Part shown: piece after piece, positions 1,520 to 46,899 of the stretch | Position numbering within the stretch: position 1 is the first letter of the stretch | Layout of the letters: each line of letters opens with the position of its first letter | Source of the DNA: Candidatus Pacearchaeota archaeon | GTDB lineage: Archaea > Nanobdellota > Nanobdellia > Pacearchaeales > GW2011-AR1 | NCBI GenBank assembly: GCA_018304985.1 | Contig: JAGVWP010000012.1 | Location: 1 to 46,899 of the forward strand | Length of the DNA: 46,899 nucleotides | Reading direction: 5' to 3' | The notes under the pieces: generated by a model | What the model saw: only the letters and a program-made list of their open reading frames with translations | Database searches by the model: none | Told to the model about the DNA's origin: nothing | Made by a program: the position numbers and the translations under genes

Positions 1520-1610
1520 CTAAAATATTTCTCAGTGGAGCTTGATTTGGTAAAAGAAAAGATAATTGCTCTTGAATCATACCATCTCTTTGCATAATTT
1601 ATTAGCTGGA
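1520..1610 (+). repeat. Intergenic composite repeat, partial copy (degenerate hairpin plus B/T module)
   Basis: cttgaatcataccatctctttgcataattta at 1571-1601 matches the B module of the family described in the findings. Confidence 0.5.
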
Positions 1611-2584: not shown

Positions 2585-3097
2585 TTAAATATCTGAAGTA
2601 AAAGTTTTTGTATAAGTATAATTAATACTAATGGGTTTCTTAATTTTCCCTTTATCATTTATTTCTCTGTAAACTGAAAGGTCAAATATAACAGAAAACT
2701 CTTTGCCATTATCTTTATCCCGAATAATAACTTTATCTTGAATTAATCTATTTTCAATTTGTGCTAATTCCCCAAAAAGAAACTGCCCATTTTCAAGTTT
2801 ATATTTAGTAAGTTCATTATTAAAATTATTAATAAACTTTTCCGGATTAACTTCTCCAGAAATAATTGTTTTTTTGGCAGCTTTATCCATTACTTCCTGG
2901 ATATAAAAATCAAGCAACATGGACTTTGAGTTAACTTCCTCTGAAATCCCATTAGAATAAATTCTCTTATCATTTATTGTGCTTTTTTTAGCAAAATAAA
3001 CAAGAGAAAAGCTAGTGAGTAATAAAGTTGCTAAAACTAAAAGAGTTATCGCTATAGGAACTCCACCTTTCTTATTATATTGTTTAATCAATCTCAT
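2585..3097 (-). CDS. Pilin-like protein with a class III signal peptide
   Basis: YNKKG followed by VPIAITLLVLATLLLTSF. ATGA overlap with the upstream gene. Confidence 0.6.
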   Translation of the reverse strand: MRLIKQYNKKGGVPIAITLLVLATLLLTSFSLVYFAKKSTINDKRIYSNGISEEVNSKSMLLDFYIQEVMDKAAKKTIISGEVNPEKFINNFNNELTKYKLENGQFLFGELAQIENRLIQDKVIIRDKDNGKEFSVIFDLSVYREINDKGKIKKPISINYTYTKTFTSDI

Positions 3098-9609: not shown

Positions 9610-9711
9610 TTCCGCCTCTTTTTATAATTGTATTAAAAACTCAAAACCACTTAATAAAACTATTGATAATAAAGGAGTAATTAATCTATTTAATCTATAT
9701 CTAAATCAAGC

Positions 9712-9800
9712 AAAATTTTTCACATAGAAAAATTTTATATTATCTATTTTCAAAAATATTTAGAAATCACACCATAACTTTACATAATTTATAGTATATA
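9712..9800 (+). repeat. Intergenic composite repeat, full copy
   Basis: Hairpin aaaatttttc-acata-gaaaaatttt at 9712-9736. B module gaaatcacaccataactttacataattta at 9763-9791. Confidence 0.8.
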
Positions 9801-9850
9801 AACTATAGAAAAATAAATTAAAGCTTACTAGGTCTAGCGAATAAAGCAGG

Positions 9851-9923
9851 GAAAAGTATTATGATATTTCAAAAATTATTCTTGAATCTATACAATACTA
9901 AATTTCTCATTTGAGAGAAATTT
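9851..9923 (-). repeat. Intergenic composite repeat, inverted copy (hairpin plus L module)
   Basis: Hairpin aaatttctc-atttga-gagaaattt at 9900-9923. The left flank is the reverse complement of agtattgtatagattcaagaa. Confidence 0.75.
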
Positions 9924-10046
9924 AACCTAATTTGAAGTAGGTAATAATTATTTAAATTAAAAAAATATTTATGAGTTATCATTAGTAGTTTGTTTTGTAA
10001 CTTGTTAGAGTAAGCTGCAGATATTTTAATTTAAGCGAATTTCTTA

Positions 10047-10723: not shown

Positions 10724-10822
10724 ATAAGTTTATACGATTAGTAAGATTATCTTATTTATAAACCTTTCGTTTTGTATGCTCTTTTTTAGAAAAAAGAAGT
10801 AAAAATAAACTTCAAAAAACTT

Positions 10823-13084
10823 CTACAATTTTGACGCAGAAAATTTATTTGCCTCTTTATCAACTCTCTTAACCCATTCTGGAAAAACTCTTTCAGAATC
10901 CGGAATTCCCACTTCTTTTGTTACCTCATCACTTACTTCATGAAAGATACTATTTGCTACCGAGCAGAATTCAGCCTCAAGAAGTTCAGGCCTATTCAAC
11001 TTTTCCGCTAAATCGACAATATACTGTTTTGTCTTTCCTCTTAAAAGTATATTATCATAAACAGCATCCCAGTTTCCAGCCCATCCTTTTACTTGAGACG
11101 CAATTTCTTTTATAATCTCAGAATCTCCGTTAATTAATTCATCACTAGGTTCCAACTCGTCTTTCTCAACATTATATTTTAATAAATCAATAAATCCTCC
11201 CTCTTCAAGCGGATCTTTAGTCCAGTGTTTTCTGACTTCAGATAATTGCATTAATCTCCTAACACTATGTAACCCGTCAGGAGTTTTTACAGGATTTGCA
11301 ACCATCACAAGATCAGTTGCTTTAAAACTTGTTATCGGAACATTAAGGTCATTAACAATTCTGTCAAATACAGCATAAGGCGAACTCCCATGAACAGTTC
11401 CTGCAACAACATTTGCCAAAGCTCCAACTCTCATTGCTTCATACAATGCTTTTGCCTCAGTGCTTCTAATCTCGCCAACAATTAAAGAACTATCTCCCAA
11501 TCTTAAACTGGCCCTTATACCTTCTTCAGCAGCAAGTTCATTGCTTGTTTCAACAAGGGATGAACGAACTTTCATTGATAAAATATCATATCCTAGTTTT
11601 CTTAAATAATCGCTCGGCAATTCCGGAGTGTCTTCAATTAAAATAACTCTATATTTTGATTTTATCTCAAGCATTAAAGCTCCAAGCAGGCTTGTTTTTC
11701 CAGAACTTCTAGTTCCAGCAACTAAAAGCGTTCTCGAACCGTCAATTAAAAAACTTAACAATCCTGCTGAAAAACTATTAATCATCTTATTTTTAATAAA
11801 TAAAGGAAGTGTCCACGGATAATCTCTATGCCTTCTTATAGCATATGACAATCCATGATGAGATAACGGCCTTTGCACAATTGCAATTCTTGCTCGTGTA
11901 TTTTCCAAAATTAAATCTGTATCCAATATAGGATTTGCTTCATCCAAAGGCCTTCCAGAAATCATCCTGAATTTTGCAGCCCACGAATCAGCATCCTCCT
12001 GGCTTAGGAGAATATTTGTCTCACATTCATCATATTTGCTATGCCTTAAAAAAATAGGATTCAAAGTTATTGGAGCATTTAAAACAATATCCTGCAACTC
12101 CTTATCCTGTAACAGCACTTCCAACAATCCAAAACCAATTGTATGCCTGACAAGAATATTTGAAAGCTTATTAAGATCAGTGTAGGAAACATAAATCTTT
12201 CTGTTTTGGGACAATTCCTGCAATAAATCCCTTGCAACATTAAAAAATACCTGTCTCGTCCTGGCAGGATCAACAAACTCCTCTGCTTTAGGCTGATGCT
12301 CAATTAAAACATTCCTTGCCAGATTCAACAGCATCTGGAAATCCTCGTTAAGAAAATATTCAGGAGGCATCAAATGATAAAAATATTTCAACTCATTTGG
12401 TTTTTTTAATATTGTTATTGTACTTTTATCCTCTTCAATTCCAATTTCATACTGATCAACAATTTTTGCTCCTTCAGGCAGGGCAGAAGCAAGTCTTGCA
12501 AAAGCAAAATTAGGAATTATATCTGGAGCAAATATTTCAGAATAAGCAACCCGACCATTAGCGCTCTCTTCTCTCTCAATTAATTTTTTAATTAATTTTG
12601 TCTCACCAAGCAGCTTAATTATCTTATCTAAAAGTCTTATATAGCTTTTATCTTGCTGTTCTAATTGAAAAGATTTTTGTTCAGTTAATTTATCTCTAAT
12701 TCTCTGATAAGCTAAAAAAGCATCAAATTTAAGGCCTTGTAAAAAATTAGTCAAAAAATCATATTTTTCAGCAGTATTTAAATTTCCAAGTTTCTCCGGA
12801 GAGAGAATTTTATCCTGTTTTAATAAAAAAGTGTATAAATTAGCTATCTCAGCAAGCATCGAGACTTGTTCAAAATTATAATTATAATTTCTCTGTTGAA
12901 CAAGAATAATTCTTGAGATATTTGGAGATTCTATAAGCAAATCAACATTTCTTGCCATTACTTCCTGCAAACTAGCAATGCTTGGAATAAATGAAGCCCC
13001 AAGATAATTAACATACGCAACATTCTCTCCAGCCTCATTTCTTACTTCATATGCATATAGTTTCGTTCCTCTTTCAAATATCAT
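10823..13084 (-). CDS. FlaI/VirB11/TadA-family secretion ATPase with a long N-terminal extension
   Basis: Walker A GTRSSGKTSLLGAL, Walker B VILIEDTPEL, IVGEIRSTEA and GTVHG boxes. 753 aa, with about 430 aa N-terminal to the P-loop. Confidence 0.85.
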   Translation of the reverse strand: MIFERGTKLYAYEVRNEAGENVAYVNYLGASFIPSIASLQEVMARNVDLLIESPNISRIILVQQRNYNYNFEQVSMLAEIANLYTFLLKQDKILSPEKLGNLNTAEKYDFLTNFLQGLKFDAFLAYQRIRDKLTEQKSFQLEQQDKSYIRLLDKIIKLLGETKLIKKLIEREESANGRVAYSEIFAPDIIPNFAFARLASALPEGAKIVDQYEIGIEEDKSTITILKKPNELKYFYHLMPPEYFLNEDFQMLLNLARNVLIEHQPKAEEFVDPARTRQVFFNVARDLLQELSQNRKIYVSYTDLNKLSNILVRHTIGFGLLEVLLQDKELQDIVLNAPITLNPIFLRHSKYDECETNILLSQEDADSWAAKFRMISGRPLDEANPILDTDLILENTRARIAIVQRPLSHHGLSYAIRRHRDYPWTLPLFIKNKMINSFSAGLLSFLIDGSRTLLVAGTRSSGKTSLLGALMLEIKSKYRVILIEDTPELPSDYLRKLGYDILSMKVRSSLVETSNELAAEEGIRASLRLGDSSLIVGEIRSTEAKALYEAMRVGALANVVAGTVHGSSPYAVFDRIVNDLNVPITSFKATDLVMVANPVKTPDGLHSVRRLMQLSEVRKHWTKDPLEEGGFIDLLKYNVEKDELEPSDELINGDSEIIKEIASQVKGWAGNWDAVYDNILLRGKTKQYIVDLAEKLNRPELLEAEFCSVANSIFHEVSDEVTKEVGIPDSERVFPEWVKRVDKEANKFSASKL

Positions 13085-13096
13085 TTTCTTTATGGT

Positions 13097-13174
13097 TTGG
13101 GAACCTTTTTTAAAGGTTGTTTTGTAACTTTTACAAAAGTTACTTTTGGGAACCTTTTTGTTCTTAAAAGGTTC
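13097..13174. promoter_or_regulatory. Three consecutive palindromes plus a 14-nt direct repeat upstream of the ATPase gene
   Basis: Palindromes: aacctttt/ttaaaggtt (13102-13118), gtaactttt-ac-aaaagttac (13124-13143), gaacctttt-tgttctt-aaaaggttc (13150-13174). ttgggaaccttttt occurs at 13097 and 13146. Confidence 0.5.
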
Positions 13175-13396
13175 ATTTCAACTATCCTTTTATTCTCTTT
13201 TTTAACTTATTATCTCCTTAAGAAATTAAGACGATTAAAATAGTTTTCTATGCTGTCAAAATGCAGGTTATGATGCTATTATTAATTTAAGTAAAATTAA
13301 TGGTATCTTTGCCCATTTATACAAGAGAGTTATTAAGTCTTTATTTATTTTAAAATTATTGAACAAGTTACCAAAACCCAATATTAAAACCCTAGT

Positions 13397-13515
13397 TTAA
13401 ATAGCTACCAAATCATGTTAAATTTCTCCCAAATGAGAAATTTAGTATTATATGGATTCAAGAACATTTTGAAATCATACCACATCTTCACCTAATTTAA
13501 ATGTGAAAGTTTCTG
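13397..13515 (+). repeat. Intergenic composite repeat, archetypal full copy (U-H-L-B-T)
   Basis: ttaaatagctaccaaatcatgtt, then hairpin aaatttctc-ccaaat-gagaaattt (13420-13443), then agtattatatggattcaagaacatttt, gaaatcataccacatcttcacctaattta and aatgtgaaagtttctg. Confidence 0.85.
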
Positions 13516-13659
13516 ATTTTTATTATTTATCATTTAGAGATTAGAAGATTCTATAAGTTATATACTATAAATTAATATGTCAAGAAACAACAACAATTTT
13601 AAACCCTATTAACATATAATATAAATAAGGAATATAAATAAGGAATAAAAAAGAGGAAA

Positions 13660-14118
13660 ATGGCGCAAGAACAATACCCGGCTCAAGAAGCAATATCTTA
13701 CGAACTCGGATTAAAATTAAGAGATTTGGAAGAAAATCAAAGATTAATGAAAGAAAGAATTCTTCTTGTAGGCCAGAACTTAATAGATTTTGAAGATAAA
13801 ACGTCAAAAGAAATATCAGAAGTAAAAAAATCAATATATGAGTTAAAATCAGATGTGGAAAGAATCAAAGGAATTATACAGTCTCTGTCAGAAGAAATTG
13901 AAAAATCAGCAAGAAGAGAAGAGCTGGCTATTTTATCCCGCCAATTTAAGATGTTTGAGCCGTTAAAATTTGCAAGAATTGAGGACATTGACAAAATAAT
14001 TGAAGAAAAATTAAATGATAAAATTGATAAACACCAATTACATAATAAAGATAATCAAAAAGAAGAGGGAAAAGAAAAAGAATCTCATCCTCATGCTTTT
14101 TGGATGGGAAAAACCTAA
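13660..14118 (+). CDS. Coiled-coil protein, hypothetical
   Basis: 152 aa, heptad-like and E/K/L/I-rich. Shares the leader aaaaaagaggaaaa-ATG with the next gene. Confidence 0.5.
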   Translation: MAQEQYPAQEAISYELGLKLRDLEENQRLMKERILLVGQNLIDFEDKTSKEISEVKKSIYELKSDVERIKGIIQSLSEEIEKSARREELAILSRQFKMFEPLKFARIEDIDKIIEEKLNDKIDKHQLHNKDNQKEEGKEKESHPHAFWMGKT

Positions 14119-14141: not shown

Positions 14142-14945
14142 ATGCCACTATTGGAAAGAGTAAGACAAATGAAGCAGTCTGGAATGAATGAAAATGAAAT
14201 AGTAAAAGGGCTTCAGGAACAGGGAATCTCTCCAAGAGAAATTAATGATGCTGTTGCTCAGTCTAGGATAAAAGATGTTATTTCAAACCAGCCAATTTCA
14301 GGCATACCCTCACAAAATACAATGCAAGAATCATCTTATCCTGGAACAGAAGAGGCAGATGGTTATTCTATAGAAGGAATGCAGCCATCATTAATAAATC
14401 AGCAAGAACAGGCACCAAATATACCTATTTATGCAGAAGAATTAGGACAGTACCCTCAACCTCAGCAATATCCTGGTTATGAAGAATACTCTCAAGAGCA
14501 AACCAGCTACCCGCAACAAACACAAGAAGGGCAAGATTATCAGTCCTATTACGGAGCAGGATATGGCAGCAGCACTGAAACAATAAGTGAAATTGCAAGC
14601 CAGATGATTGATGAAAAACTTTCAAAAACAAATAAAATCCTTAGTAATTTAACTGAATTTAAAATAATTTTAGATGCAAAAGTTGATAAAATAGACCAAA
14701 GACTGCAAAGAATTGAGTTAATTATTGATCAGCTGCAAACTAATTTAATAAGAAAATCGTCTTCTCAAATTCAGGATATTGAAGATATAAAAAATGAAAT
14801 GAGGGGTATGCAAGAAGGCTTCAGTAAAGTCCTTAATCCTCTAACAGACAACATAAGAGAAATTGAAAGAATAAAAAGCAGAACAGAAAAATCAGGTATA
14901 AGCAAGCCAATTAAACAGATAAAATCAAAAATCAAGAAAAAATAA
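14142..14945 (+). CDS. Hypothetical protein: small helical N-domain, Q/P/Y-rich low-complexity linker, C-terminal coiled coil
   Basis: 267 aa. Linker sequence GQYPQPQQYPGYEEYSQEQTSYPQQTQEGQDYQSYYGAGYGSS. Confidence 0.5.
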   Translation: MPLLERVRQMKQSGMNENEIVKGLQEQGISPREINDAVAQSRIKDVISNQPISGIPSQNTMQESSYPGTEEADGYSIEGMQPSLINQQEQAPNIPIYAEELGQYPQPQQYPGYEEYSQEQTSYPQQTQEGQDYQSYYGAGYGSSTETISEIASQMIDEKLSKTNKILSNLTEFKIILDAKVDKIDQRLQRIELIIDQLQTNLIRKSSSQIQDIEDIKNEMRGMQEGFSKVLNPLTDNIREIERIKSRTEKSGISKPIKQIKSKIKKK

Positions 14946-16697: not shown

Positions 16698-16813
16698 GAT
16701 TATAAAACATAAACTCCATTTAAATATCTTTCGCAGCGAAATATTTAGAAGTTATTAAAAATCAGTAAATATCATAATCTAAAACCAACTTAAACAGACA
16801 ATAAATAAGGCAT

Positions 16814-16907
16814 AAATTTTCTTCAAATGAAAATTTATTTATGATGTGTTTTCAAAAAATGTACCATGATAATAATACAATCCCCCACTTATTTTAAGGT
16901 GAAATCT
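16814..16907 (+). repeat. Intergenic composite repeat, diverged copy
   Basis: Hairpin aaattttc-ttcaaat-gaaaattt at 16814-16836, followed by diverged L and B modules. Confidence 0.6.
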
Positions 16908-16985
16908 AATTATATTTTATTAATTATCCCCTGAATATTCTAATGTTATATAAGTTTTATGTAATAAATTAAAATAAAAAGAAAA

Positions 16986-17495
16986 TTAACTTGTCGCCTT
17001 TTTTTTCGCGCCAAATATAACAACAGCCAAAGCTCCAAGAATTATCGCAATCATTAAAATATTTGAAGCCAAGCTTGAAAAGCTCCCTCCGCCAAATAGT
17101 GCATTGTAAGCTTTATCCCATTGCCCTGTTGCAACAATTACTGCAATAATCAAAGCAATTCCTGCTAAAATACCGATGCCATATTGCAGTTGTTTAGGTA
17201 ATTTAAGACCCTCCCTCATATCACTTGCTACAAAACCATATAAGATCATAAATACCAAAAGAATAACAACAGAAACAGCTAGAAATGGCATTAAGCCGGC
17301 AATAATATTTGTAGCCCATGAAAAAGCAACAACAATTAAACCAACAGCAAGAGCAACAAGAGCGTCAATCTGTCTTTTATCCTCTCCTAAAATCTTTGAT
17401 TTCTGAAGAATCGCAAAAACTAAAGTGAACACCAGCAAAAAGGGATAAATAATCTTCACAGCAAAGTCACTTGATAAAATAGTTTCTAAAGCCAT
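16986..17495 (-). CDS. Membrane protein, paralog 3 of 3
   Basis: Motif AILQKSKILGE and DALVALAVGLIVV. Confidence 0.55.
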   Translation of the reverse strand: MALETILSSDFAVKIIYPFLLVFTLVFAILQKSKILGEDKRQIDALVALAVGLIVVAFSWATNIIAGLMPFLAVSVVILLVFMILYGFVASDMREGLKLPKQLQYGIGILAGIALIIAVIVATGQWDKAYNALFGGGSFSSLASNILMIAIILGALAVVIFGAKKKATS

Positions 17496-17516: not shown

Positions 17517-17610
17517 TTTAAAAACTATTCGCTCATGCAAAATAGTTTTTAAAATAATGTTCTTGAATCACTACTATATCTATACCTAATTTAAATGAGT
17601 AAATTACTAT
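17517..17610 (+). repeat. Intergenic composite repeat with a different 13-bp hairpin
   Basis: tttaaaaactatt (17517-17529) pairs with aatagtttttaaa (17541-17553). It is followed by cttgaatcactactatatctatacctaatttaaatgagtaaattact. Confidence 0.65.
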
Positions 17611-17642
17611 ATCTTGCCAGTTTTAATCAACCAATTATAAAA

Positions 17643-17764
17643 ATAAATCATGCAAAATTTTTCACATAGAAAAATTTAGAATTATATATTTTTCAAAACC
17701 TTATTTTAAAATCACACCATAATTCTACTTAATTTATACATCTTAAGTTACTTATCATTAAATC
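17643..17764 (+). repeat. Intergenic composite repeat, full copy
   Basis: Hairpin aaaatttttc-acata-gaaaaattt at 17654-17677. B module 17707-17736. Tail acatcttaagttacttatcattaaat recurs exactly at 38486-38511. Confidence 0.85.
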
Positions 17765-17813
17765 AATAATGTTGGTTATTGCAAAGATTCAAATTTTAGA
17801 AATTTACTAAAGT

Positions 17814-18178: not shown

Positions 18179-18300
18179 TCATAAAGAAAAACCTTGAATA
18201 AAAGGGGATGTCATAAGAAAAACCTTGGCACTTAAAAGGAAAGTTTAATAAAGAAAACCTTGGCACTTAAAAGGAAAGTTTAATAAAGAAAACCTTGGTT
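18179..18300 (+). repeat. Tandem repeat directly upstream of the 18309 ATG
   Basis: Perfect 35-bp unit aaccttggcacttaaaaggaaagtttaataaagaa at 18221-18255 and 18256-18290, with partial copies on both sides. A related motif lies at 19699-19726. Confidence 0.8.
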
Positions 18301-18308
18301 GTCTTTAT

Positions 18309-19017: not shown

Positions 19018-19527
19018 TTATACACAAGGAGTTTCTTTTCTAAATATCTCTCCAAAATTATTTATGCATGCATAAGCATCATCCTGATCATAAGGAAAAG
19101 CACCATCACTTCCTTTTAATGAAGAAACAGATATATTACCTTTATCTACATGAAGTCCGTCATAAAAATTTGTTTTTGCATCTACCTGCAATCTCCCTAT
19201 TCCTCCATAAGTATAAGATATATCAATCACCGGCCTATATGTTCCCTCAAAGGCAGGATATCCCCCTATACGAATAGAAGAGGGCTCAACAATTAATAAT
19301 CCATTACTAACATTTAATGTATTATATACTTCAACTGAATTACTTTTTAAATTTGTAAATTTAGCATCAATCTCTGCCTTAGTATAAACTTCTTGTGCAA
19401 GCGGCCCATATCCTCTAGCCGCCTTAAATCCTATAACATTCCCAGTTATATTAGCCGTAATCAAACTCGCAGCAACTGCAACAACAAGAACAACAGCAAT
19501 AATTACCATCCATTCTTTATTTTTCAT
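19018..19527 (-). CDS. Secreted or anchored protein, hypothetical (full-length paralog)
   Basis: Signal anchor MKNKEWMVIIAVVLVVAVAASLITANITGNV. GGAGG-like box 17 nt upstream of the ATG. Confidence 0.6.
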   Translation of the reverse strand: MKNKEWMVIIAVVLVVAVAASLITANITGNVIGFKAARGYGPLAQEVYTKAEIDAKFTNLKSNSVEVYNTLNVSNGLLIVEPSSIRIGGYPAFEGTYRPVIDISYTYGGIGRLQVDAKTNFYDGLHVDKGNISVSSLKGSDGAFPYDQDDAYACINNFGEIFRKETPCV

Positions 19528-19562: not shown

Positions 19563-19626
19563 TAATTATAAAATTAATAAAGAAAAATGATATATATATT
19601 TCGGTCTTAAAAATTGCATGAAATTA
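19563..19626. repeat. Conserved 5' flank (promoter-like, TATA-rich) shared with 24362-24425
   Basis: The 64-nt taattataaaattaataaagaaaaatgatatatatatttcggtcttaaaaattgcatgaaatta has about 5 mismatches to the second copy. Confidence 0.7.
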
Positions 19627-19654: not shown

Positions 19655-19690
19655 AAGCTAATAAATCATTTTAAATTTCTCCTAATAAAA
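19655..19690 (+). repeat. Intergenic composite repeat, degenerate fragment (U module plus left hairpin arm)
   Basis: aagctaataaatcattttaaatttctcc. The right hairpin arm is missing. Confidence 0.4.
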
Positions 19691-19872
19691 GAAAAACTCA
19701 TAAAGAAAACCTTTGGTTGTCTTTATTATTTAGTTTTGTGATGATTCAAACATATATTGAAATGCCATAATACTTTTCTCCACTTTATCAGCTAAAAATA
19801 GTAGACTCCTTAAGTTAATTGGTAAATTAATTTTATCTAAAATCTTATATATACGCATTAATTTCAAGCTTA

Positions 19873-22800
19873 ATGGAAAAAATCTTAAAATTTCTCTTAA
19901 ATATCTCTCCAAGAGACTATCAAAAAGAAATTGTGAAAAAATGCATTGAAAAAAATTGTCTTGTTGTTCTTCCAACAGGAATTGGTAAAACTCTCATCGC
20001 TTTAATGCTGGCAATAAGCAGAATGCAAAGCCATCCTACTGAAAAAATTCTTTTCCTCGCTCCTACAAGGCCACTAGCCCAACAGCATTTTACATATTTC
20101 CAAGAACATCTTCCAGAATTATTTGCTCAAATGGATTTGTTCACAGGAAAAATAGAGGCAAATAAAAGAAAGGGTTTATGGGAAAGAGCAGATATTGTTT
20201 TTTCAACACCCCAATGCATTGGCGGGGAAACGAGTATTTTTACAGAAGATGGTCCAATCAAAATCAAAGACTTTTTTGAGCAATTTAACTTTAAACAAAA
20301 AAATCCCAATAAAAAATTATATACTGCAGAAATAAGCAAAAAAGTTTTGGGATATAAAAATAAAAAAATTAGTTTTGTAAATGCTACAAAAGCTATTAAA
20401 TTAGAAGTTGATAAAACACTTAAAATAAACACTGAAATTGGAAATTTCTTAGAGTGTACTCCAGAACATCCACTATTAACAATAGACTCTTTCGGAAACA
20501 TTATATGGAAAAAAGCTGAAAATTTAAGGCAAGGAGATTACATAGCAAGTATAAAAGAAATAAGTATGGAAGAAGAAGAAATTGATATATGGAAATTAAT
20601 AGAAAACTCGAAGTTAAAAGTATCAAATAAAGAAGATACACTAAACGTTTTACATTATTTAAAACTAAAAAATAATGTTCTCAAACTTCCTTTAAAAGAT
20701 TATTCAAGATTTAAATATAATCTTATCCCAACAAAGATATTTTTTGATTTAACAAAAAAATTAAATCTTCCTTATCCTAAAAATATGGAGTTTAGTGATT
20801 GGACAGGAAAAAGTAAGCCGATAACCCTGCCAAGATATCTTAATAGAGATTTAAGTTATGTGATTGGAGCGATGTTGGGAGATGGGCATTTAGGAAATAG
20901 AAAAGGGCATGGTTGTGAGGTGGTTTTTTCAGACCTAGACCGCGAGGAAATTTCTGCTGAATTTAAAAAAGTAATCTTAAATCTATTTGGAGAAGATATG
21001 AAAAAAGACATTAAGAAAGGATTAGTCTCTTATAACTCTGCTCTTTCAGAAGTATTTTTAAATTTAGGGGTTCCGAGAGGCAGAAAAGCATCAAGAATAA
21101 GGGTTCCTAAATTTATATTTTTCAGCCCAATTGAGTGTGTTGCAGGATTTATAAAGGGAATTTTTGATACAGATGGAAATGCTGGGAAGTATTCCGTTAG
21201 TATTTCAAGTGTTAGTAAAGATTTCATAACAGACTTAAAATGGCTTTTTTTAAAAATAGGGATTTTAGGCAATATCTCAAAAAGAAAAAATTTAGGAAGT
21301 ATAGGTAAAAGAAAAATTAAAGAATCGATAATATATACTTTTAGATTTTCTGGCCGAAGGCAACTCGAAAAATTTCTAGAAATTTGCAATCCAGATTACT
21401 CAAAATGCCGAAAATTGATAGAAAGTATTAAAAATACAAAAAGACCTTTTACAAGATCTAAAGAAATATTGCCAATTAAAGGGTTGCTTAATAAAGTTTA
21501 CCTTAATAATCAAGGTAAATTTGCAAGATACTTGATTTCCTACTTATCCGGAGAAAATTTACAAAAAATAAGTTTATTATCAAAAGGAAAAGAGGCTGAA
21601 AAACTTAAAGAACTCCTATCAAATTCGATAAGATGGACAAAGATAAAAAAAATAGAAGAATCAAAAGAAAAAATGATAGTGTATGATTTTACAATAGAAA
21701 AAGAACATAATTTTATAACTAATTATATAATAAGCCATAACTGCATTGCAAATGATGTAAAAGAAAAATTATATAATTTATCTCAGGTTTCTCTGTTAAT
21801 AGAAGACGAAGCTCATAGATGCGTTAAAAATTATTCATATACTTATGTTGCAAAAAAATACCTAGAACAAAAAGAAAATAACAAGGAAAACACCCGTATT
21901 CTTGGCCTCACAGCCTCTCCAGGAACTAATAAAGAGGCAATTAAAACAATTTGTAAAAACTTATCCATTGAAGAAGTTGAAATTCGAACTAGAGAGAGCG
22001 AAGATGTGAAAGAATATCTTCAAGAGCTGGAAATCAAGGTAATAAAGTTGGAATTCCCAAAAGAATTTGCTGAAATTCGCAATTTGCTTAAGAAAATTTA
22101 TGATAAAAAAACAGAAGAGCTGAAAAGCAGGCATTTGCTATTCGGACCAATTAACAAAGTAACCCTTCTCGAAGCACAAGGAAAAATAATGCGTTCACTT
22201 GCAACAGGTAATAAAAACTTTAATTTATTTGCAGGAGCTTCTGCAGCAGCACAGGCATTAAAAGTTCAGCATGCTCTGGAATTAATAGAAACACAAACAC
22301 TTTATGCCTTGGATAACTATTTCCAGACTTTATTTGAACAGGCTAGAAAAGAGCAGAGCAAAGCTGTTAAAAATCTTGTTGCAAATGCGGAATTTAATAA
22401 TGCTTACATACAAACAAAAAATCTTATTTCTCAAAATTTAGAACATCCAAAACTGCTTCAGTTAAAAGACCTTATTGAAAATAAAGTTGCTGAAAACCCT
22501 AAAGCAAAAATAATTGTTTTCTCGCAATACAGGGACAGCGTTACAAAAATCTGCAGAGAATTAAATTCTTTAAATAATGTTACTGCAAAGGTTTTTGTTG
22601 GCCAGGCAAAAAAAACTTTAAGTAATAAACCTGATAATAAAGAAAATACAACAGGATTAAGCCAAAAAGAACAGCAGCAAATAATTCAGGAATTTTCAAG
22701 AGGAGAATTTAATGTTCTTTGCGCAACATCAATTGCAGAAGAGGGTTTGGATATTCCAGAAGTGAATGCAGTTATTTTCTACGAGCCAGTTCCGAGCGCA

Positions 22801-23025
22801 ATTCGTAAAATACAGCGAGCAGGCAGAACAGCAAGGTTAATGCCAGGAGAGGTTATAATGCTTGTTACAAAAGCTACAAGAGACGAATCCTATTACTGGG
22901 CAGCTCATCACAAGGAAAAAAGCATGCACAAAGCCATATCTGCAATAAAGCAGGATTTAGAAAACGAAAAACTAAATTTTACAATTAATGAAAATGAGGA
23001 AACTGAACAGAAGAAGTTATTTTAA
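19873..23025 (+). CDS. hef: Hef/FANCM-type SF2 helicase (helicase part only), interrupted by an intein
   Basis: Motif I LPTGIGKT, Ia LAPTRPLAQQ, TPQ, DEAH (IEDEAHR), TASPG, QRAGRTAR. N-extein 19873-20214, C-extein 21742-23025, together 541 aa. Confidence 0.85.
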   Translation: MEKILKFLLNISPRDYQKEIVKKCIEKNCLVVLPTGIGKTLIALMLAISRMQSHPTEKILFLAPTRPLAQQHFTYFQEHLPELFAQMDLFTGKIEANKRKGLWERADIVFSTPQCIGGETSIFTEDGPIKIKDFFEQFNFKQKNPNKKLYTAEISKKVLGYKNKKISFVNATKAIKLEVDKTLKINTEIGNFLECTPEHPLLTIDSFGNIIWKKAENLRQGDYIASIKEISMEEEEIDIWKLIENSKLKVSNKEDTLNVLHYLKLKNNVLKLPLKDYSRFKYNLIPTKIFFDLTKKLNLPYPKNMEFSDWTGKSKPITLPRYLNRDLSYVIGAMLGDGHLGNRKGHGCEVVFSDLDREEISAEFKKVILNLFGEDMKKDIKKGLVSYNSALSEVFLNLGVPRGRKASRIRVPKFIFFSPIECVAGFIKGIFDTDGNAGKYSVSISSVSKDFITDLKWLFLKIGILGNISKRKNLGSIGKRKIKESIIYTFRFSGRRQLEKFLEICNPDYSKCRKLIESIKNTKRPFTRSKEILPIKGLLNKVYLNNQGKFARYLISYLSGENLQKISLLSKGKEAEKLKELLSNSIRWTKIKKIEESKEKMIVYDFTIEKEHNFITNYIISHNCIANDVKEKLYNLSQVSLLIEDEAHRCVKNYSYTYVAKKYLEQKENNKENTRILGLTASPGTNKEAIKTICKNLSIEEVEIRTRESEDVKEYLQELEIKVIKLEFPKEFAEIRNLLKKIYDKKTEELKSRHLLFGPINKVTLLEAQGKIMRSLATGNKNFNLFAGASAAAQALKVQHALELIETQTLYALDNYFQTLFEQARKEQSKAVKNLVANAEFNNAYIQTKNLISQNLEHPKLLQLKDLIENKVAENPKAKIIVFSQYRDSVTKICRELNSLNNVTAKVFVGQAKKTLSNKPDNKENTTGLSQKEQQQIIQEFSRGEFNVLCATSIAEEGLDIPEVNAVIFYEPVPSAIRKIQRAGRTARLMPGEVIMLVTKATRDESYYWAAHHKEKSMHKAISAIKQDLENEKLNFTINENEETEQKKLF
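20215..21741 (+). mobile_element. Intein (509 aa) with a LAGLIDADG homing endonuclease domain
   Basis: Starts Cys (STPQ|CIGGETSIF) and ends SHN, followed by +1 Cys (CIANDV). Block B TPEHPLL. LAGLIDADG motifs LSYVIGAMLGDGHLG and VAGFIKGIFDTDGNAG. Confidence 0.85.
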
Positions 23026-23450: not shown

Positions 23451-23794
23451 TCTTTTACTAAATTATTTTTGTTTATAAACCTTTTGAAGTATTTTTTAAG
23501 AGTTTTTCTTCCTAAAGGAAATGCTGTTATTATTCTTATCTTGTCCCTGAATGTTAATACATAAGCTCTTCCATGATTTTTGTTATATATGAAATAAAGG
23601 GTGTACCTAATCTCTCCATCAACTTTCTTTTTATGAGTATAACCTAATCTTTTACATTCATTTAATTCATCTTCTACTTCTTTTATAGACAGGCTAATTC
23701 TATGGGACAAATATCTTTCAGACTTGCCGAATTCAAAGCCCTTATTTTTATATTCTTTTATTTTCTCTTTTACTTCCATGGAATAATTTTCCAT
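23447..23794 (-). CDS. DUF4258/BrnT-like small protein, putative toxin
   Basis: 115 aa. The C-terminal beta-rich RYTLYFIYNKNHGRAYVLTFRDKIRIITAFP resembles RelE/BrnT-fold toxins. Paired with a DUF2283-like gene. Confidence 0.4.
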   Translation of the reverse strand: MENYSMEVKEKIKEYKNKGFEFGKSERYLSHRISLSIKEVEDELNECKRLGYTHKKKVDGEIRYTLYFIYNKNHGRAYVLTFRDKIRIITAFPLGRKTLKKYFKRFINKNNLVKE

Positions 23795-23993: not shown

Positions 23994-24350
23994 TTAAGGA
24001 GAACAACAAATATACTCTACTCCCTCATATTCATTTGGACTTTTATGACCTACGTTCGTATCACAAGTAACCAATTCTATATGTTGAGGTTTAGAGTTAT
24101 CCTCAAGAGTCGTTATCTTTAAACCAAATAGACATCTACGACTACCATCAATATGAGAATTGCATATTTCATCACCATTAAAACCATCATTATCATCAGG
24201 AAAACTATTAGATCCATAGAATGGTGAGCGAACACACTTATTTAACATATTCAAAACATCATTTGTATTAGCTACTTGAACCTGTCTTCCAAATCCCTGC
24301 CTTATAACAACATTTCCAGTAATATTAGCAGTTATCAGCGAAACAGCCAC
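23994..24350 (-). pseudogene. 5'-truncated paralog of 19018..19527 with an unrelated Cys-rich C-terminal part
   Basis: Shares SLITANITGNV and the 5' flank with the paralog. An ~80-nt deletion removes the ATG, the GGAGG box and most of the signal anchor. Only a GTG start remains. Confidence 0.5.
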
Positions 24351-24361
24351 TGCAACATTCT

Positions 24362-24425
24362 TAATTATAAAATCAATAAGGAAAAATGATATATATATTT
24401 CGGTTTTAAAAATTACATGAAATTA
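24362..24425. repeat. Second copy of the conserved promoter-like 5' flank
   Basis: See 19563-19626. Confidence 0.7.
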
Positions 24426-28314: not shown

Positions 28315-28851
28315 TTACATCCCCCTTACCATAAGCAAATCAGAATATTTTGCCCCTTGCTTTGTCAGCTCTGATTCTTTCAAAGAAATATTATCAACTT
28401 TAAACTTCATCTTCTCAAAACTAATCTTCTTAAGTTCATTGATAAAAACCTGTTTGTCCTCAACAAATTTTGGTCTTGCTAAAGTTACATGAGCCATAAA
28501 TCTGTTTTCAGGAGGAAAAATATCTTCTAACATTTTATCAACCTGTTTTTGAATTTCAAACATTTCCTTTCCATTTAATCCAATCCAGACAATTCTTATA
28601 AAATCCTCTGAAAACACTCCCAATTCTCCAAGCTCTGCTTCAAAAGGATCAAATTTTATGCTTCCCAATCTCTCTTTAACAGCTTCCAGTTCAGATCTGG
28701 AAATCTCTCCAAGAAACTTCAGAGTTAAATGTAAATTCTCAAATTCAGTAAACTTTCCTTTAATCAAGGCTAATTTATCTATCTCCTTCTGAATCTTAGT
28801 CAATTCTTGTTTAACATTTTCCGGCATTTCAATTGCAATAAAAGCTCTCAT
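28315..28851 (-). CDS. 2H phosphoesterase (LigT/ThpR-like 2'-5' RNA ligase family)
   Basis: Two HxTx motifs, HLTLKFLG and HVTLAR, in a 178-aa protein. Confidence 0.8.
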   Translation of the reverse strand: MRAFIAIEMPENVKQELTKIQKEIDKLALIKGKFTEFENLHLTLKFLGEISRSELEAVKERLGSIKFDPFEAELGELGVFSEDFIRIVWIGLNGKEMFEIQKQVDKMLEDIFPPENRFMAHVTLARPKFVEDKQVFINELKKISFEKMKFKVDNISLKESELTKQGAKYSDLLMVRGM

Positions 28852-28919
28852 ATCTAAATCTCTAATAATATATATTAAACTTATATTTAAACTTTGGGAA
28901 TTTAAATATTAAGAATATT

Positions 28920-28968
28920 CTGAAATCATACTATACTTTTACCTAATTTATTCGAGAAAGTTACTATG
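28920..28968 (+). repeat. Intergenic composite repeat, B/T module only
   Basis: ctgaaatcatactatacttttacctaatttattcgagaaagttactatg. Confidence 0.7.
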
Positions 28969-29077
28969 TTTTAAATTTAAGCTATTCAATATTCAATTAA
29001 TTTTTTTATATTTTCAAAACTTAAAAGAATAACTGCGTAATGCTTGAGCAAAAAGAAAGAATGAAGCAGACAAATTA

Positions 29078-29098
29078 CACGCGAACGAAGTGAGCGTG
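29078..29098 (-). terminator. GC-rich hairpin immediately after the stop of 29100..29921
   Basis: cacgc-gaacgaagtga-gcgtg. Homologous to 1741-1761, with a compensatory stem change and 8 of 11 loop identities. Confidence 0.4.
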
Positions 29099-29099
29099 T

Positions 29100-38405: not shown

Positions 38406-38453
38406 CTCACTCTAAAATATACGGAATTTTTAAACATAACTATTGTTAAAAAT

Positions 38454-38512
38454 CTTGAATCACATAATAACTCTGCCTAATTTACACATCTTAAGTTACT
38501 TATCATTAAATT
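38454..38512 (+). repeat. Intergenic composite repeat, B/T module
   Basis: cttgaatcacataataactctgcctaatttacacatcttaagttacttatcattaaatt. Confidence 0.8.
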
Positions 38513-38544
38513 ATCATAAATATATCTAAACCTAATTGATGCTT

Positions 38545-38604
38545 AAAAACCAGGTTAAATTTCTCTAAACGAGAAATTTTATATTATAATGATTCAAAAC
38601 ATCG
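38545..38604 (+). repeat. Intergenic composite repeat, U/H/L modules
   Basis: Hairpin aaatttctc-taaac-gagaaattt at 38557-38579, followed by tatattataatgattcaaaac. Confidence 0.8.
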
Positions 38605-38686
38605 TTCTTTAGAGTGGGAGGTAAGGCGAGCGAAGGAGCGAGGCGAAAGAGTTATAAACTATTCTCAATTAATAATTAAGAAAAAA

Positions 38687-39725
38687 GTGGTGATTAAAAT
38701 TCCAAGCAAAAAAAAAACATATTCTAATTGCTATTATTATTGCTTCTTCTATATTAATAATTATTGCAAGTTCAATTAACCTTATTTTCTTCAAAGAAAT
38801 TCCAAAATCAGAAATACAATTAAGCCCGACTGATCCGCCGGCAGCATATTTATCAATAAATGGGGTTGGAAAATTATCCTCACAAACATTATGGCTAGCT
38901 AGCCAGGGAGAAGTTTATAGCTTTCATGTAATAGGAGAAAATGTGGATAGAACTGAAATGATTCTCCAGGGAGAAAATTATGGTTCATATTTGACAGTAA
39001 AAGAAAATCAAATGGATTTTAGATTTTTAGGTTCTGCTGGACCATATCGATCTTTAACAATTAATGGGAAGAAAAATGGAGTTAAAGTCCCCTTAGCATA
39101 TTTTGGCATAGAAACAGATACTGAAGGGCTTGTCTATCCTTATGAAGTAATAGAGACATATACTAGTAAGACTGAATCAATGAATGATCAAGAAGCTACT
39201 TATTACCCTTGTATGAAATTTAAAGATATACCGGGAACAGCTATTTATAAAGAGTTAAAGCGCAAAGATTGGTATGGTGAAGAGAATATAGTTGACATAG
39301 AACAAACAAGTAAATATGATACTCCTCCTGAGGAATATCCTTCAACAACCGAATGTGAGATTAGAAAACCGGGAACAGAACTGCCCGATAAACATTTTCT
39401 CTGTAGGGGTTACCTTGTTAAAGAAGGAAATATGTTTGATAGGACACTGGGGTGTTTTAAACTCGATAGCATATCTGCATTGTTCGTAAAAACCTTTTGT
39501 TATGAAGCACCTACCTCAGACAAAGATATATTAAGGCAAGAAGCAGTAGATATAACTAGCTGGACTCAATATGACATAAACAATTTTATTGCCTCTTCAA
39601 CAGGGTGCAGCGGAATAACAGAATTATATGACTGGAGACCTAAAGAACCTCCTGCAGAACCAATTATAACCGCTTCTAGTGAAGAAGAATGTTCTCGACT
39701 TCTTGATCCAGGTTGTGAAGGATAA
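38687..39725 (+). pseudogene. Secreted Cys-containing protein whose start and signal anchor are out of frame at an A10 tract
   Basis: GTGGTG ATT AAA ATT CCA AGC, then A10 (38708-38717). The 38943..39725 frame continues upstream as KKKHILIAIIIASSILIIIASS. Deleting one A would fuse the two frames. Confidence 0.5.
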
Positions 39726-39728
39726 TTT

Positions 39729-39780
39729 CTTGAATCATGCCATAACCCTGCCTAATTTATCAATGTAAGTTGCTAAGCTT
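39729..39780 (+). repeat. Intergenic composite repeat, B/T module
   Basis: cttgaatcatgccataaccctgcctaatttatcaatgtaagttgctaagc. Confidence 0.8.
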
Positions 39781-39795
39781 ACCAGTTTAATTTAA

Positions 39796-39862
39796 TTAAA
39801 TAGCTATAAAATCATGCTAAAATTTTCCTAAATGGAAAATTTAATATTATATGATTTCAAAT
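39796..39862 (+). repeat. Intergenic composite repeat, U/H/L modules
   Basis: ttaaatagctataaaatcatgct, then hairpin aaattttcc-taaat-ggaaaattt at 39820-39842. Confidence 0.8.
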
Positions 39863-40820: not shown

Positions 40821-40860
40821 ATTTATTATAATAAACCTAACTAAACCTTATCTAACCTGC

Positions 40861-40955
40861 TTTAAATCGGGCAAAATTTCTCTAAACGAGAAATTTTTTT
40901 ATTATGTGATTAAAATACTTTTTGAAAACATGCTATACCTCTGCCTAATTTTTTA
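40861..40955 (+). repeat. Intergenic composite repeat, U/H/L/B modules
   Basis: Hairpin aaatttctc-taaac-gagaaattt at 40874-40896. B module ttgaaaacatgctatacctctgcctaattt. Confidence 0.8.
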
Positions 40956-41069
40956 TACTTATATGCTAAAGTTTAAATTATCTTAGTAAGCCACACAAAA
41001 AGATAATAAAAACAAAGCATATTTCTCACAATAATCATATTTATAATATTAAATAACTATTTACATAAA

Positions 41070-41837: not shown

Positions 41838-41864
41838 TCTTTTAATAAAAATATCAAAAACTAT

Positions 41865-41914
41865 TCCGAAATCATGCCGTAACTTTACCAGATTTATACA
41901 CAAAGGTTGCTATG
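41865..41914 (+). repeat. Intergenic composite repeat, B/T module
   Basis: ccgaaatcatgccgtaactttaccagatttatacacaaaggttgctatgc. Confidence 0.75.
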
Positions 41915-41950
41915 CTTTATTATTTATTTAATGCGATAACAATATTAATT

Positions 41951-42054
41951 AATAGATAAATAAAGCTAAATTTTCCTAAATGGAAAATTTTATATTACAT
42001 TATTTTCTAAACATACCATATCTCTCCCTAATTTTCACGCGAGAGCAACTATTC
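41951..42054 (+). repeat. Intergenic composite repeat, full copy
   Basis: Hairpin aaattttcc-taaat-ggaaaattt at 41968-41990. B module ctaaacataccatatctctccctaatttt, then cacgcgagagcaactattc. Confidence 0.8.
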
Positions 42055-42276
42055 TTAAATAGATTAATTTAACTAGCGAGTTAATTTAGTATAACCAATA
42101 TGTTTTTCTTCATTTTCAAAATTGATATAATCTCTGAATTCACTACTAAAGCTCAATTCTACGGCGTTATCACTACTCATTTCAAATGCCATAGATTTAT
42201 AAGTTTCAAACTCTGATAAAAGTAATTGCCATTAGAAGTGAACAATGAGTGAAAGGAGGTTAGTAAAAAAGAAAAA

Positions 42277-43815: not shown

Positions 43816-43884
43816 ATAAGAAAAAGTTTAATTATAAAGTTTGCTATCATATGTATAATTAACATAAATCTAATTTAAGCAGTT

Positions 43885-43980
43885 AATAAAGTATGTTAAA
43901 TTTCTCCTAAAAAGAGAAATTTAGTATTGTGAAAATTCAAAAACAGTATTTGAAATAATATCTCACCCTACTTTGTAGTC
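43885..43980 (+). repeat. Intergenic composite repeat, diverged full copy
   Basis: Hairpin aaatttctc-ctaaaaa-gagaaattt at 43898-43922. agtattgtgaaaattcaaaaacagtatttgaaataatatctcaccctactttg. Confidence 0.7.
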
Positions 43981-44021
43981 TTGATCTAGTTCATTCCATA
44001 ATATACCTTTATTAAATATCA

Positions 44022-46632: not shown

Positions 46633-46680
46633 AAAAATAGCATAAATGATCATATCCTGAATTAAATTAAATAATAAAAT

Positions 46681-46801
46681 TAGCAACTTTCTCATATAAA
46701 TAAGGTAAAATTATGGTATGATTTCAAAAATATTTTATGAATCTATATAATACTAAATTTTTCTCTAAGAAAAATTTAACTTGATTTATAGTTAGTTAAA
46801 T
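46681..46801 (-). repeat. Intergenic composite repeat, full inverted copy
   Basis: Hairpin aaatttttc-tctaa-gaaaaattt at 46755-46777. The reverse complement reads agtattatatagattcataaaatatttttgaaatcataccataattttaccttatttatatgagaaagttgcta. Confidence 0.8.
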
Positions 46802-46804
46802 ACA

Positions 46805-46899
46805 CTAAACCATAATACTTCCCTCCTTTTCAAAATAGTTTGAAATTCTATCCATCGCTTCTCTTACTGTTTTAAAATTGCTATTTTGCAAAACATCTC
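46805..46899 (-). CDS. 3' end of a minus-strand gene that runs off the window
   Basis: Open frame ...DVLQNSNFKTVREAMDRISNYFEKEGSIMV*. Function unknown. Confidence 0.3.
   Translation of the reverse strand, partial: DVLQNSNFKTVREAMDRISNYFEKEGSIMV

Follow-up and report, generated by a model that had tools for sequence, protein, structure and literature searches.

The window and its palindromes

The stretch of DNA analysed here, referred to as the window, covers positions 1 to 46,899 (46,899 nucleotides) of contig JAGVWP010000012.1 from a Candidatus Pacearchaeota archaeon (assembly GCA_018304985.1). Its G+C content is 30% and its gene content is archaeal, with an intein-bearing helicase, type IV pilus-like genes and many toxin-antitoxin pairs. 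Contigs identical to the window occur in Rifle-type groundwater metagenomes, and the same-population contigs L001–L006 match it at 100% identity. The intein of the helicase gene (19873–23025) carries a LAGLIDADG homing endonuclease domain. Upstream of the gene at 38943–39725, positions 38688–38942 encode an apparent signal-peptide-like N-terminal extension that is broken by a run of 10 A; the interruption is either a frameshift or a sequencing error. The window ends within an IS630-like element (46794–46899, continuing at 325–1612 of contig L001), which encodes HTH_32 and DDE_3 domains split into two ORFs and whose insertion adjoins the left flank of a repeat unit. No tRNA or tmRNA was found, and the whole window gave no Rfam match at the gathering threshold, with nothing credible in 1300–2000 at E ≤ 1.

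One non-coding-looking stretch, 1584–1930, is 87% identical to JACPLR01 (Candidatus Pacearchaeota archaeon NC_groundwater_526), where neighbouring proteins are only 25–40% identical. It holds a minus-strand ORF for a very basic peptide of about 38 amino acids (MSDDYAFSGKRTSKKDLRRKRKFRVYKKGGRFRDSEKEN), followed by GC-rich hairpins, and has no Rfam match. A G/C-rich module that follows AATAAC(T)GCG lies at 1690–1760 and 38600–38650 of the window and at 2990–3060, 9850–9930 and 12050–12110 of locus L063. Changes in its hairpin are compensated (ATCAAC/GTTGAT, ATCAGC/GCTGAT, GTAAC/GTTAC), it contains GCGAGCGAAGCGAGCG repeats, and it could be a structured RNA.

The original prediction listed eleven AAATTT..C/G..AAATTT palindromes, and all eleven were present as perfect inverted repeats, starting at 9712, 9899 (minus strand), 13419, 16812, 17655, 38557, 39820, 40873, 41968, 43897 and 46754 (minus strand). 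The palindromic core measures 23–27 nt and occurs 11 times in 47 kb. Perfect stems of at least 9 bp with loops of 3–12 nt number 21 in the window, against 7.0 ± 1.9 in dinucleotide shuffles (an excess of about threefold), and the family hairpins make up 11 of the 21. The arm variants are those that had been described, namely CTC/GAG, TCC/GGA and TTC/GAA together with a paired one-nucleotide deletion, TTTTC/GAAAA; the tenth stem pair also alternates between T-A and A-T. The family palindrome is a real and statistically sound observation. A further stem of 13 bp with an 11-nt loop was confirmed at 17517–17553; the chance expectation for any stem of at least 12 bp in the window is 0.15.

The repeat unit, its placement and nearby promoters

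The family hairpin is the core of a modular, non-coding, intergenic repeat of about 130–190 bp. Its parts run as follows: a left flank with the motifs ..TAATTTAAATAGCTA..AAATCATG, the hairpin, a T/A-rich, BRE/TATA-like flank (TTTAGTATTGTATAGATTCAAGAA directly after the hairpin), a B module with the consensus TTGAAATCATGCCATAACTCT.CCTAATTTA..AAGTT.CTGATTTT, and tail modules, two extra ones being present in the longest copies. Modules also occur solo or recombined with the G-rich module and with a promoter-like module, D12. Searches with nhmmer gave at least 17 matches in the window, amounting to about 4% of its bases when match lengths are summed. A four-way alignment of the longest copies gave a best terminal match of 9–10 nt, AT-rich (AATTTAAATAG / CTATAAATT), and no consistent target-site duplication.

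Two full units lie in opposite orientation at 9669–9829 (plus strand; A core and B; hairpin AAAATTTTTC-ACATA-GAAAAATTTT at 9712–9736 with a perfect 10-bp stem; nhmmer E = 4.7e-24) and 9806–9973 (minus strand; hairpin TAAATTTCTC-loop-GAGAAATTTA at 9899–9924 with a perfect stem; E = 8.7e-29). The longest unit, at 13379–13575 on the plus strand, comprises A, B and two tail modules (hairpin 13419–13444, CTC-CCAAAT-GAG; E = 2.7e-32), and a diverged unit at 16785–16916 (plus) has lost one base from each arm (hairpin ATAAATTTTC-TTCAAAT-GAAAATTTAT, 16812–16838). Further full units on the plus strand lie at 17611–17766 (hairpin AAATTTTTC-ACATA-GAAAAATTT, 17655–17677), 40828–40993 (AAAATTTCTC-TAAAC-GAGAAATTTT, 40873–40897) and 43857–44012 (TAAATTTCTC-CTAAAAA-GAGAAATTTA, 43897–43923); one on the minus strand, at 46667–46817 (hairpin 46754–46778), adjoins the right end of the IS630-like element. 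The order of modules differs in three plus-strand copies: at 38448–38599, B (38448–38508) is followed by the A core and then the G-rich module (hairpin AAATTTCTC-TAAAC-GAGAAATTT, 38557–38579); at 39727–39861, upstream of the GTPase gene, B is followed by an A core (hairpin AAATTTTCC-TAAAT-GGAAAATTT, 39820–39842); and at 41855–42072, B precedes a full unit with the same hairpin (41968–41990). A rearranged unit at 19656–19817 (plus) consists of the left arm and loop, a D12 module whose own hairpin replaces the right arm, the A right flank and B; its junction recurs independently in locus L061 of a sister genome. Solo B modules were found at 1570–1602 (plus; D6 repeat family) and 28910–28983 (plus), the latter within a 248-nt insertion between the arginase and LigT genes.

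All copies are intergenic; none lies inside an ORF. Orientation relative to the upstream and downstream genes divides the copies into four classes of 13, 8, 8 and 7, and this split indicates that the element is neither promoter nor terminator of its neighbours. A general role as terminator was rejected, since copies are spread over divergent, convergent and tandem spacers at random expectation. In the window, 10 of 12 copies are on the plus strand and are co-oriented locally whatever the strand of the genes; in JACPLR01, the copies within each locus are all on one strand. This polarity could stem from local duplication instead of a strand-specific mechanism.

The repeat was found in three genomes with GTPase identities of at least 86%. 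The three MAGs that bear it are the window genome, GCA_016186425.1 and GCA_041643095.1. JACPLR01, with a GTPase 86% identical to that of the window, is the closest named relative, and the third genome with the family, GCA_041643095.1, has a GTPase 90% identical. About 40 further nhmmer matches lie in JACPLR01 loci and several in the third genome. The repeat was not found in 159 kb from relatives whose GTPase is at most 71% identical, nor in locus L064 (74%), and the viral contigs searched gave chance matches only. In more distant relatives, the flanking genes are not syntenic with the window.

Within the three genomes, occupancy of orthologous sites is patchy. Between arginase and LigT, a block of modules 213–248 nt long is present in the window and in JACPLR01; in the window it spans 28852–29099 (248 nt), versus a 4-nt overlap of the two genes in the sister genome (19549–19552 of L061). 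The block carries a new LigT promoter. At the JACPLR01 counterpart of the 41968 site, B is conserved and the hairpin is missing. The copy at 13379–13575 shares 88.5% identity over 183 nt with one in JACPLR01, and a second such pair is 81% identical over 149 nt; in both pairs the similarity spans the element only and not its flanks, and an orthologous 2-kb gene block is 79% identical. The existence of the family is established, as are its strictly intergenic location and its presence at only some of the orthologous sites. An inversion between two copies was also considered to explain how GTPase and TyrRS were rearranged in L061 and was rejected, as the predicted orientation did not match.

The host's own promoters bear on the palindrome at 17517–17553, which the original prediction had treated as a completely different stem of the same repeat hairpin. 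Promoters in this genome follow the consensus CGAAAGG-TTTATAAATA (examples at 10724–10770, 16698–16740 and 23451–23490), and for 14 of 26 genes the TATA 10-mer stops exactly 19 nt short of the ATG, implying that most mRNAs are leaderless. On the minus strand, the right arm of the 17517–17553 stem, preceded by GCG (CGAATAG TTTTTAAACT), gives gene 16986–17495 its best promoter-matrix match; the TATA box stops exactly 19 nt short of the ATG, which is the commonest spacing in the genome. The arm AATAGTTTTTAAA is the BRE/TATA box of that gene, and the other arm is an inverted copy of the box. A B module does lie just 3′ of the palindrome (17543–17612, plus; E = 0.0049; D4 repeat family), but the claim that the stem occupies the same position relative to B holds only approximately: the stem ends 11 nt before the GAATCAC motif of B, versus 26–32 nt for the family hairpin. 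On the strength of the promoter-box arm at 19 nt and the 11-nt distance to B, the 17517–17553 stem is a separate object, a promoter-associated palindrome adjoining a B module, neither homologous to the family hairpin nor a variant of it.

The family repeat itself was rejected as a promoter of its neighbours; the real promoters are separate and no copy sits at the 19-nt spacing. No family copy lies 19–30 nt from an annotated ATG, and promoter-matrix scores of the copies are moderate (1.7–9.5). In one orthologous spacer, the promoter is about 90% conserved versus about 62% for the element.

Several other palindromes and repeats in the window contain TATA boxes or lie upstream of genes. At 28883–28909, ATATTTAAA-CTTTGGGAA-TTTAAATAT forms a pair of TATA boxes set back to back, the loop holding BRE-like bases; one box serves LigT (28315–28851) and the other faces a B module. 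D12 occurs as 35-nt tandem copies at 18199–18308 and reads GGAAAG TTTAATAAA, then 20 nt that contain the palindrome AAAGAAAACC/GGTTGTCTTT, then ATG; it provides the promoter for gene 18309 in the window and for the GTPase gene in JACPLR01. Further D12 sites are 19686–19726, 9960–10000 of L063 and 6346–6617 of L061, where there is a nested insertion in D12's own loop. In two cases D12 takes the place of the family hairpin's right arm, and the junction is the same in both. Several palindromes and AAAAGGTTCCCAAA repeats lie at 13100–13175, upstream of the secretion-ATPase gene (10823–13084), one of the palindromes being centred on a TATA box. Finally, a 64-nt repeat, 94% identical between 19563–19626 and 24362–24425, lies upstream of the minus-strand genes 19018–19527 and 23994–24350 and is probably a shared promoter region.

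Pairing of the arms and stem-loop classes

The pairing of the arms was assessed on copies collected with a position-independent HMM that did not require both arms. This gave 36 non-redundant copies from the window and a related Pacearchaeota genome, 33 of which have perfect stems. Pairing cells in the alignment reached 92.7%, versus 85.6% in shuffles (0 of 500 as high), and sliding the partner column lowered pairing to 69% or less. The covariation score was 0.206, versus 0.096 in shuffles (again 0 of 500 as high), bearing out the covariation that had been predicted. A search of 596 Gb of genomes, designed not to select for pairing, used a pattern for the right arm and right flank only, with no left arm required. 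It returned 15 matches in JACPLR01, of which 12 have a perfect left arm, two share one common A.G mismatch and one has a bulge; the 14 matches in other organisms, with the left arm absent, are chance.

Most of the covariation arises at two places in the stem, the third pair from the loop (T-A 23, C-G 10) and the tenth (T-A 13, A-T 9), with further contributions from the TCC/GGA class and from the class that has lost one base from both arms. Intermediates are rare: ATC/GAG and single A.G mismatches were each seen twice, and an unpaired deletion and a TCC/GAG chimera (L061, 12247) once each, the chimera being the only case of mixed-class arms in about 42 copies. The imperfect copies contain seven mismatched pairs in all (four A.G, one C.A, two T.G). 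Loop length varies among copies from 3 to 8 nt. RNAalifold, run on 25 full units, recovered the family hairpin as the sole conserved hairpin; a second hairpin between A and B, GATTCAAGAA/TTCTTGAATC, is visible by eye and was set aside for want of RNAalifold support.

Contrary to what had been stated, loops do not vary freely. ACATA, TAAAC and TAAAT each occur twice in the window, and each is tied to one stem class: CTC goes with TAAAC or YCAAAT, and TCC with TAAAT. The 23-mer with TTC-ACATA-GAA, found at 17655–17677, is identical in nine copies across the three genomes, and the flanks of these nine are 48–70% identical (48% and 63% over the 12 nt adjoining it at its two ends). The 23-mer acts as one conserved unit that exists in a few discrete stem-and-loop classes; across these classes the arms stay complementary, and the remainder of the element is far less conserved than the core.

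Cores were also compared at orthologous sites. Upstream of the helicase gene, L061 has TTC-ACATA-GAA versus CTC-CCAAAA-GAG in JACPLR01; the central 11–12 nt differ as a block and the immediate flanks are about 85% alike (35 of 42), which points to patch replacement and not to two point mutations. At the copy upstream of the GTPase, the TCC-TAAAT core and flank are identical at 38 of 41 positions between the window and L061, and the remaining spacer is about 45% identical. After the GTPase, at the 40828–40993 unit, the window has CTC-TAAAC versus TTC-ATAAAA-GAA in JACPLR01. Together, these comparisons indicate that the core is maintained in place by selection, patch conversion or both.

Because stem and loop are inherited or patch-copied together as classes, the covariation counts are inflated. 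Most of the apparent co-variation is class descent or patch-copying, in which a handful of events is counted repeatedly; the pattern can be explained with about four that were compensated (two pairs of substitutions, one pair of transversions and one paired deletion). The arms are thus constrained to pair, as the original prediction held, but its contention that co-variation argues against simple descent by copying fails, since the classes are themselves inherited or patch-copied. The prediction had also left the choice between a stem-loop and a symmetric dimer-binding site. Symmetric co-variation, the variable loop length and the scarcity of mixed arms speak for a folded strand rather than for a dimer-bound duplex of fixed spacing.

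Possible roles of the repeat and comparison with known systems

The reading that we prefer, with a probability of roughly 45%, is that this is a REP/MITE-like, lineage-specific repeat that has become dispersed between the genes of a small groundwater clade of Pacearchaeota and whose hairpin is recognised as folded nucleic acid. In such a scheme, the core would act as a folded single strand or cruciform, more likely of DNA than of RNA, and would be recognised by protein machinery that copies, converts or mobilises the element. If the folded core is what is recognised, only self-complementary variants would propagate; copies would be homogenised by short-patch copying, and new classes would arise rarely, via compensated changes. 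A role at the level of DNA and of the element is suggested by the independence of transcription direction, the strand polarity, the narrow distribution and the patchy occupancy of orthologous sites. Evidence for the pairing constraint includes the paired one-nucleotide deletion in both arms, with an uncompensated intermediate seen once. On the other side, a transposase or recombinase tied to the element did not come to light: Pfam scans of 50 of the 55 curated window ORFs found no Y1, TnpB or tyrosine-integrase domain. The 267-residue protein encoded at 14142–14945 has an N-terminal, sub-threshold match to Recombinase (large serine recombinases; 20.9 bits versus a cut-off of 21.1) and is without a catalytic domain; its gene lies about 570 nt downstream of the 13379–13575 unit, with gene 13660–14118 in between.

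Perfect cores beside diverged flanks, at orthologous sites included, fit purifying selection at the level of the host and selection at the level of the element equally. It is conceivable, though in our judgement unlikely, that the hairpin is more than a transposon handle and is a strand-polar signal that the host, with its reduced DPANN genome, retains and keeps perfect in place while the element around it decays. Some process at the level of the chromosome, for example one that sets the polarity of replication or segregation or insulates supercoils, might then recognise it in the form of a cruciform or a single-strand hairpin. In another version of this unlikely reading, the hairpin would control dozens of orphan promoter units that make a family of RNAs of about 55 nt.

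The idea of orphan promoters can be set out more specifically, and we again think it improbable. The right arm and its flank (GAGAAA TTTAGTATT or GAAAAA TTTTATATT) would be a BRE/TATA box driving a short, unstructured RNA of about 50–60 nt, the B module, that ends at the T-run after B, and the left arm would be an inverted BRE forming an operator or cruciform. The right arms do resemble the host's promoter consensus: six of the nine A-core right arms are in the window's top 1% on the promoter matrix (scores from 1.7 to 9.5; 99th percentile 2.95). The predicted start coincides with the conserved start of B (TGAAATCAT), and about 15 of 25 copies have, past B, a run of at least four T in a common column. 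D12, a related module, works as a genuine leaderless promoter, and the palindromes at 17517 and 28883 are likewise made of TATA boxes. However, half of the copies carry TTTAGTATT, which is a poor TATA box, scores fall under those of most real promoters, and the distance from TATA to B varies through indels of up to about 14 nt. Promoter function also offers no reason for the co-variation of the arms.

A hairpin acting in RNA at the level of the host, as a 3′-end stabiliser, terminator or processing site of the kind proposed for many bacterial REPs, seems to us quite improbable. The palindrome folds alike in transcripts of either strand, several copies lie 8–75 nt past a stop codon, and the TTC class has a T5 run on both strands. 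Yet 8 of 36 copies, a random share, sit between divergent gene starts, the stem is weak and AT-rich, T.G accounts for only two of the seven mismatched pairs, and at one orthologous site the hairpin was lost without visible consequence.

It is very doubtful that the palindrome is a symmetric operator in double-stranded DNA bound by a dimeric protein, for example a winged-helix regulator encoded nearby. Its 9-N5-9 geometry is typical of such sites, a BRE-like motif overlaps the core and loop sequence is conserved within a class, but the spacer can be anything between 3 and 8 nt long, variants of the half-sites are hardly ever combined even though a homodimer would tolerate mixing, and copies recur about once per 4 kb regardless of gene orientation, unlike a regulon. 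Mechanical upkeep with no selection, by intrastrand template switching (quasipalindrome correction) or gene conversion between copies, is equally doubtful: it would suit the block replacement at the helicase-upstream site, the chimeric copy in L061 and the identical cores adjoining diverged flanks, but other chance palindromes in the window are no commoner than in shuffles, correction alone leaves within-class loop conservation unexplained, and so does it the core's place in a conserved larger element.

Pacearchaeota genomes are tiny and streamlined, and yet one repeat family takes up about 4% of the window, separates genes that overlap in a sister genome and imports promoter-like sequence. 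The family is a convenient marker of recent genome dynamics in uncultured DPANN archaea, and it offers a clean natural case of a hairpin that stays intact as its surroundings decay. Should a protein that recognises it be found, this would be a rare REP-like system in Archaea.

Several known systems were rejected as the identity or source of the repeat. An attC site needs an imperfect palindrome of 57–141 nt with extrahelical bases, a GTTRRRY core and an integrase, whereas the present stem is perfect and 9–10 bp long; no tyrosine integrase was found in the 50 scanned window ORFs. The copies are not CRISPR repeats, as they lie 0.2–25 kb apart inside larger homologous units and are not regularly spaced. 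C/D-box sRNAs, replication-origin boxes and dif-type sites were excluded because the sequence lacks their defining motifs or arrangement. The IS630-like neighbour was rejected as a parent; its 14-bp perfect terminal repeat, AGTTAAATACACTA, is unrelated to the ends of the element.

Among mobile and repetitive elements, PATEs (derived from IS200/IS605) share a conserved hairpin, the lack of clear terminal inverted repeats and strand-polar copies, as expected of single-strand transposition. Unlike PATEs, the present unit has one conserved hairpin where both ends would be expected to have one, no TnpA or TnpB was seen, and no target tetranucleotide was identified. BOX elements of pneumococci, Correia elements of Neisseria and MITEs are, like this repeat, non-coding units of 100–200 bp built of reusable modules, patchy at orthologous sites and able to carry promoter-like sequence. 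High MITE densities have been reported for DPANN genomes (PMC11602168). In contrast to MITEs, the repeat has no convincing terminal inverted repeats or target-site duplication, and its conserved inverted repeat is internal and tiny.

Surveys of REPs in prokaryotes describe a GTAG or CGTC tag at the end of the palindrome (PMC3733652); here the foot of the stem is preceded by a variable (C/T/A)A(T/A/G)G(Y)(W), without GTAG or CGTC. The present hairpin is AT-rich and not GC-rich, and the repeat is not depleted from divergent spacers. Unlike in REPINs, there is a single inverted pair (9712/9899), and other copies are single or tandem and co-oriented. The host is an archaeon; no RAYT was found in the sequence covered, about 47 kb plus scattered loci of each genome, and no Y1_Tnp domain in the 50 of 55 curated window ORFs that were scanned. 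Like REPs, BIMEs and REPINs, however, the repeat is a short (20–40 nt) palindrome of high copy number, restricted to intergenic DNA, with lineage-specific classes, mosaic modular arrays and a stem kept by paired changes. Our literature searches found no description of this repeat family; the family is new, the kind of element known.
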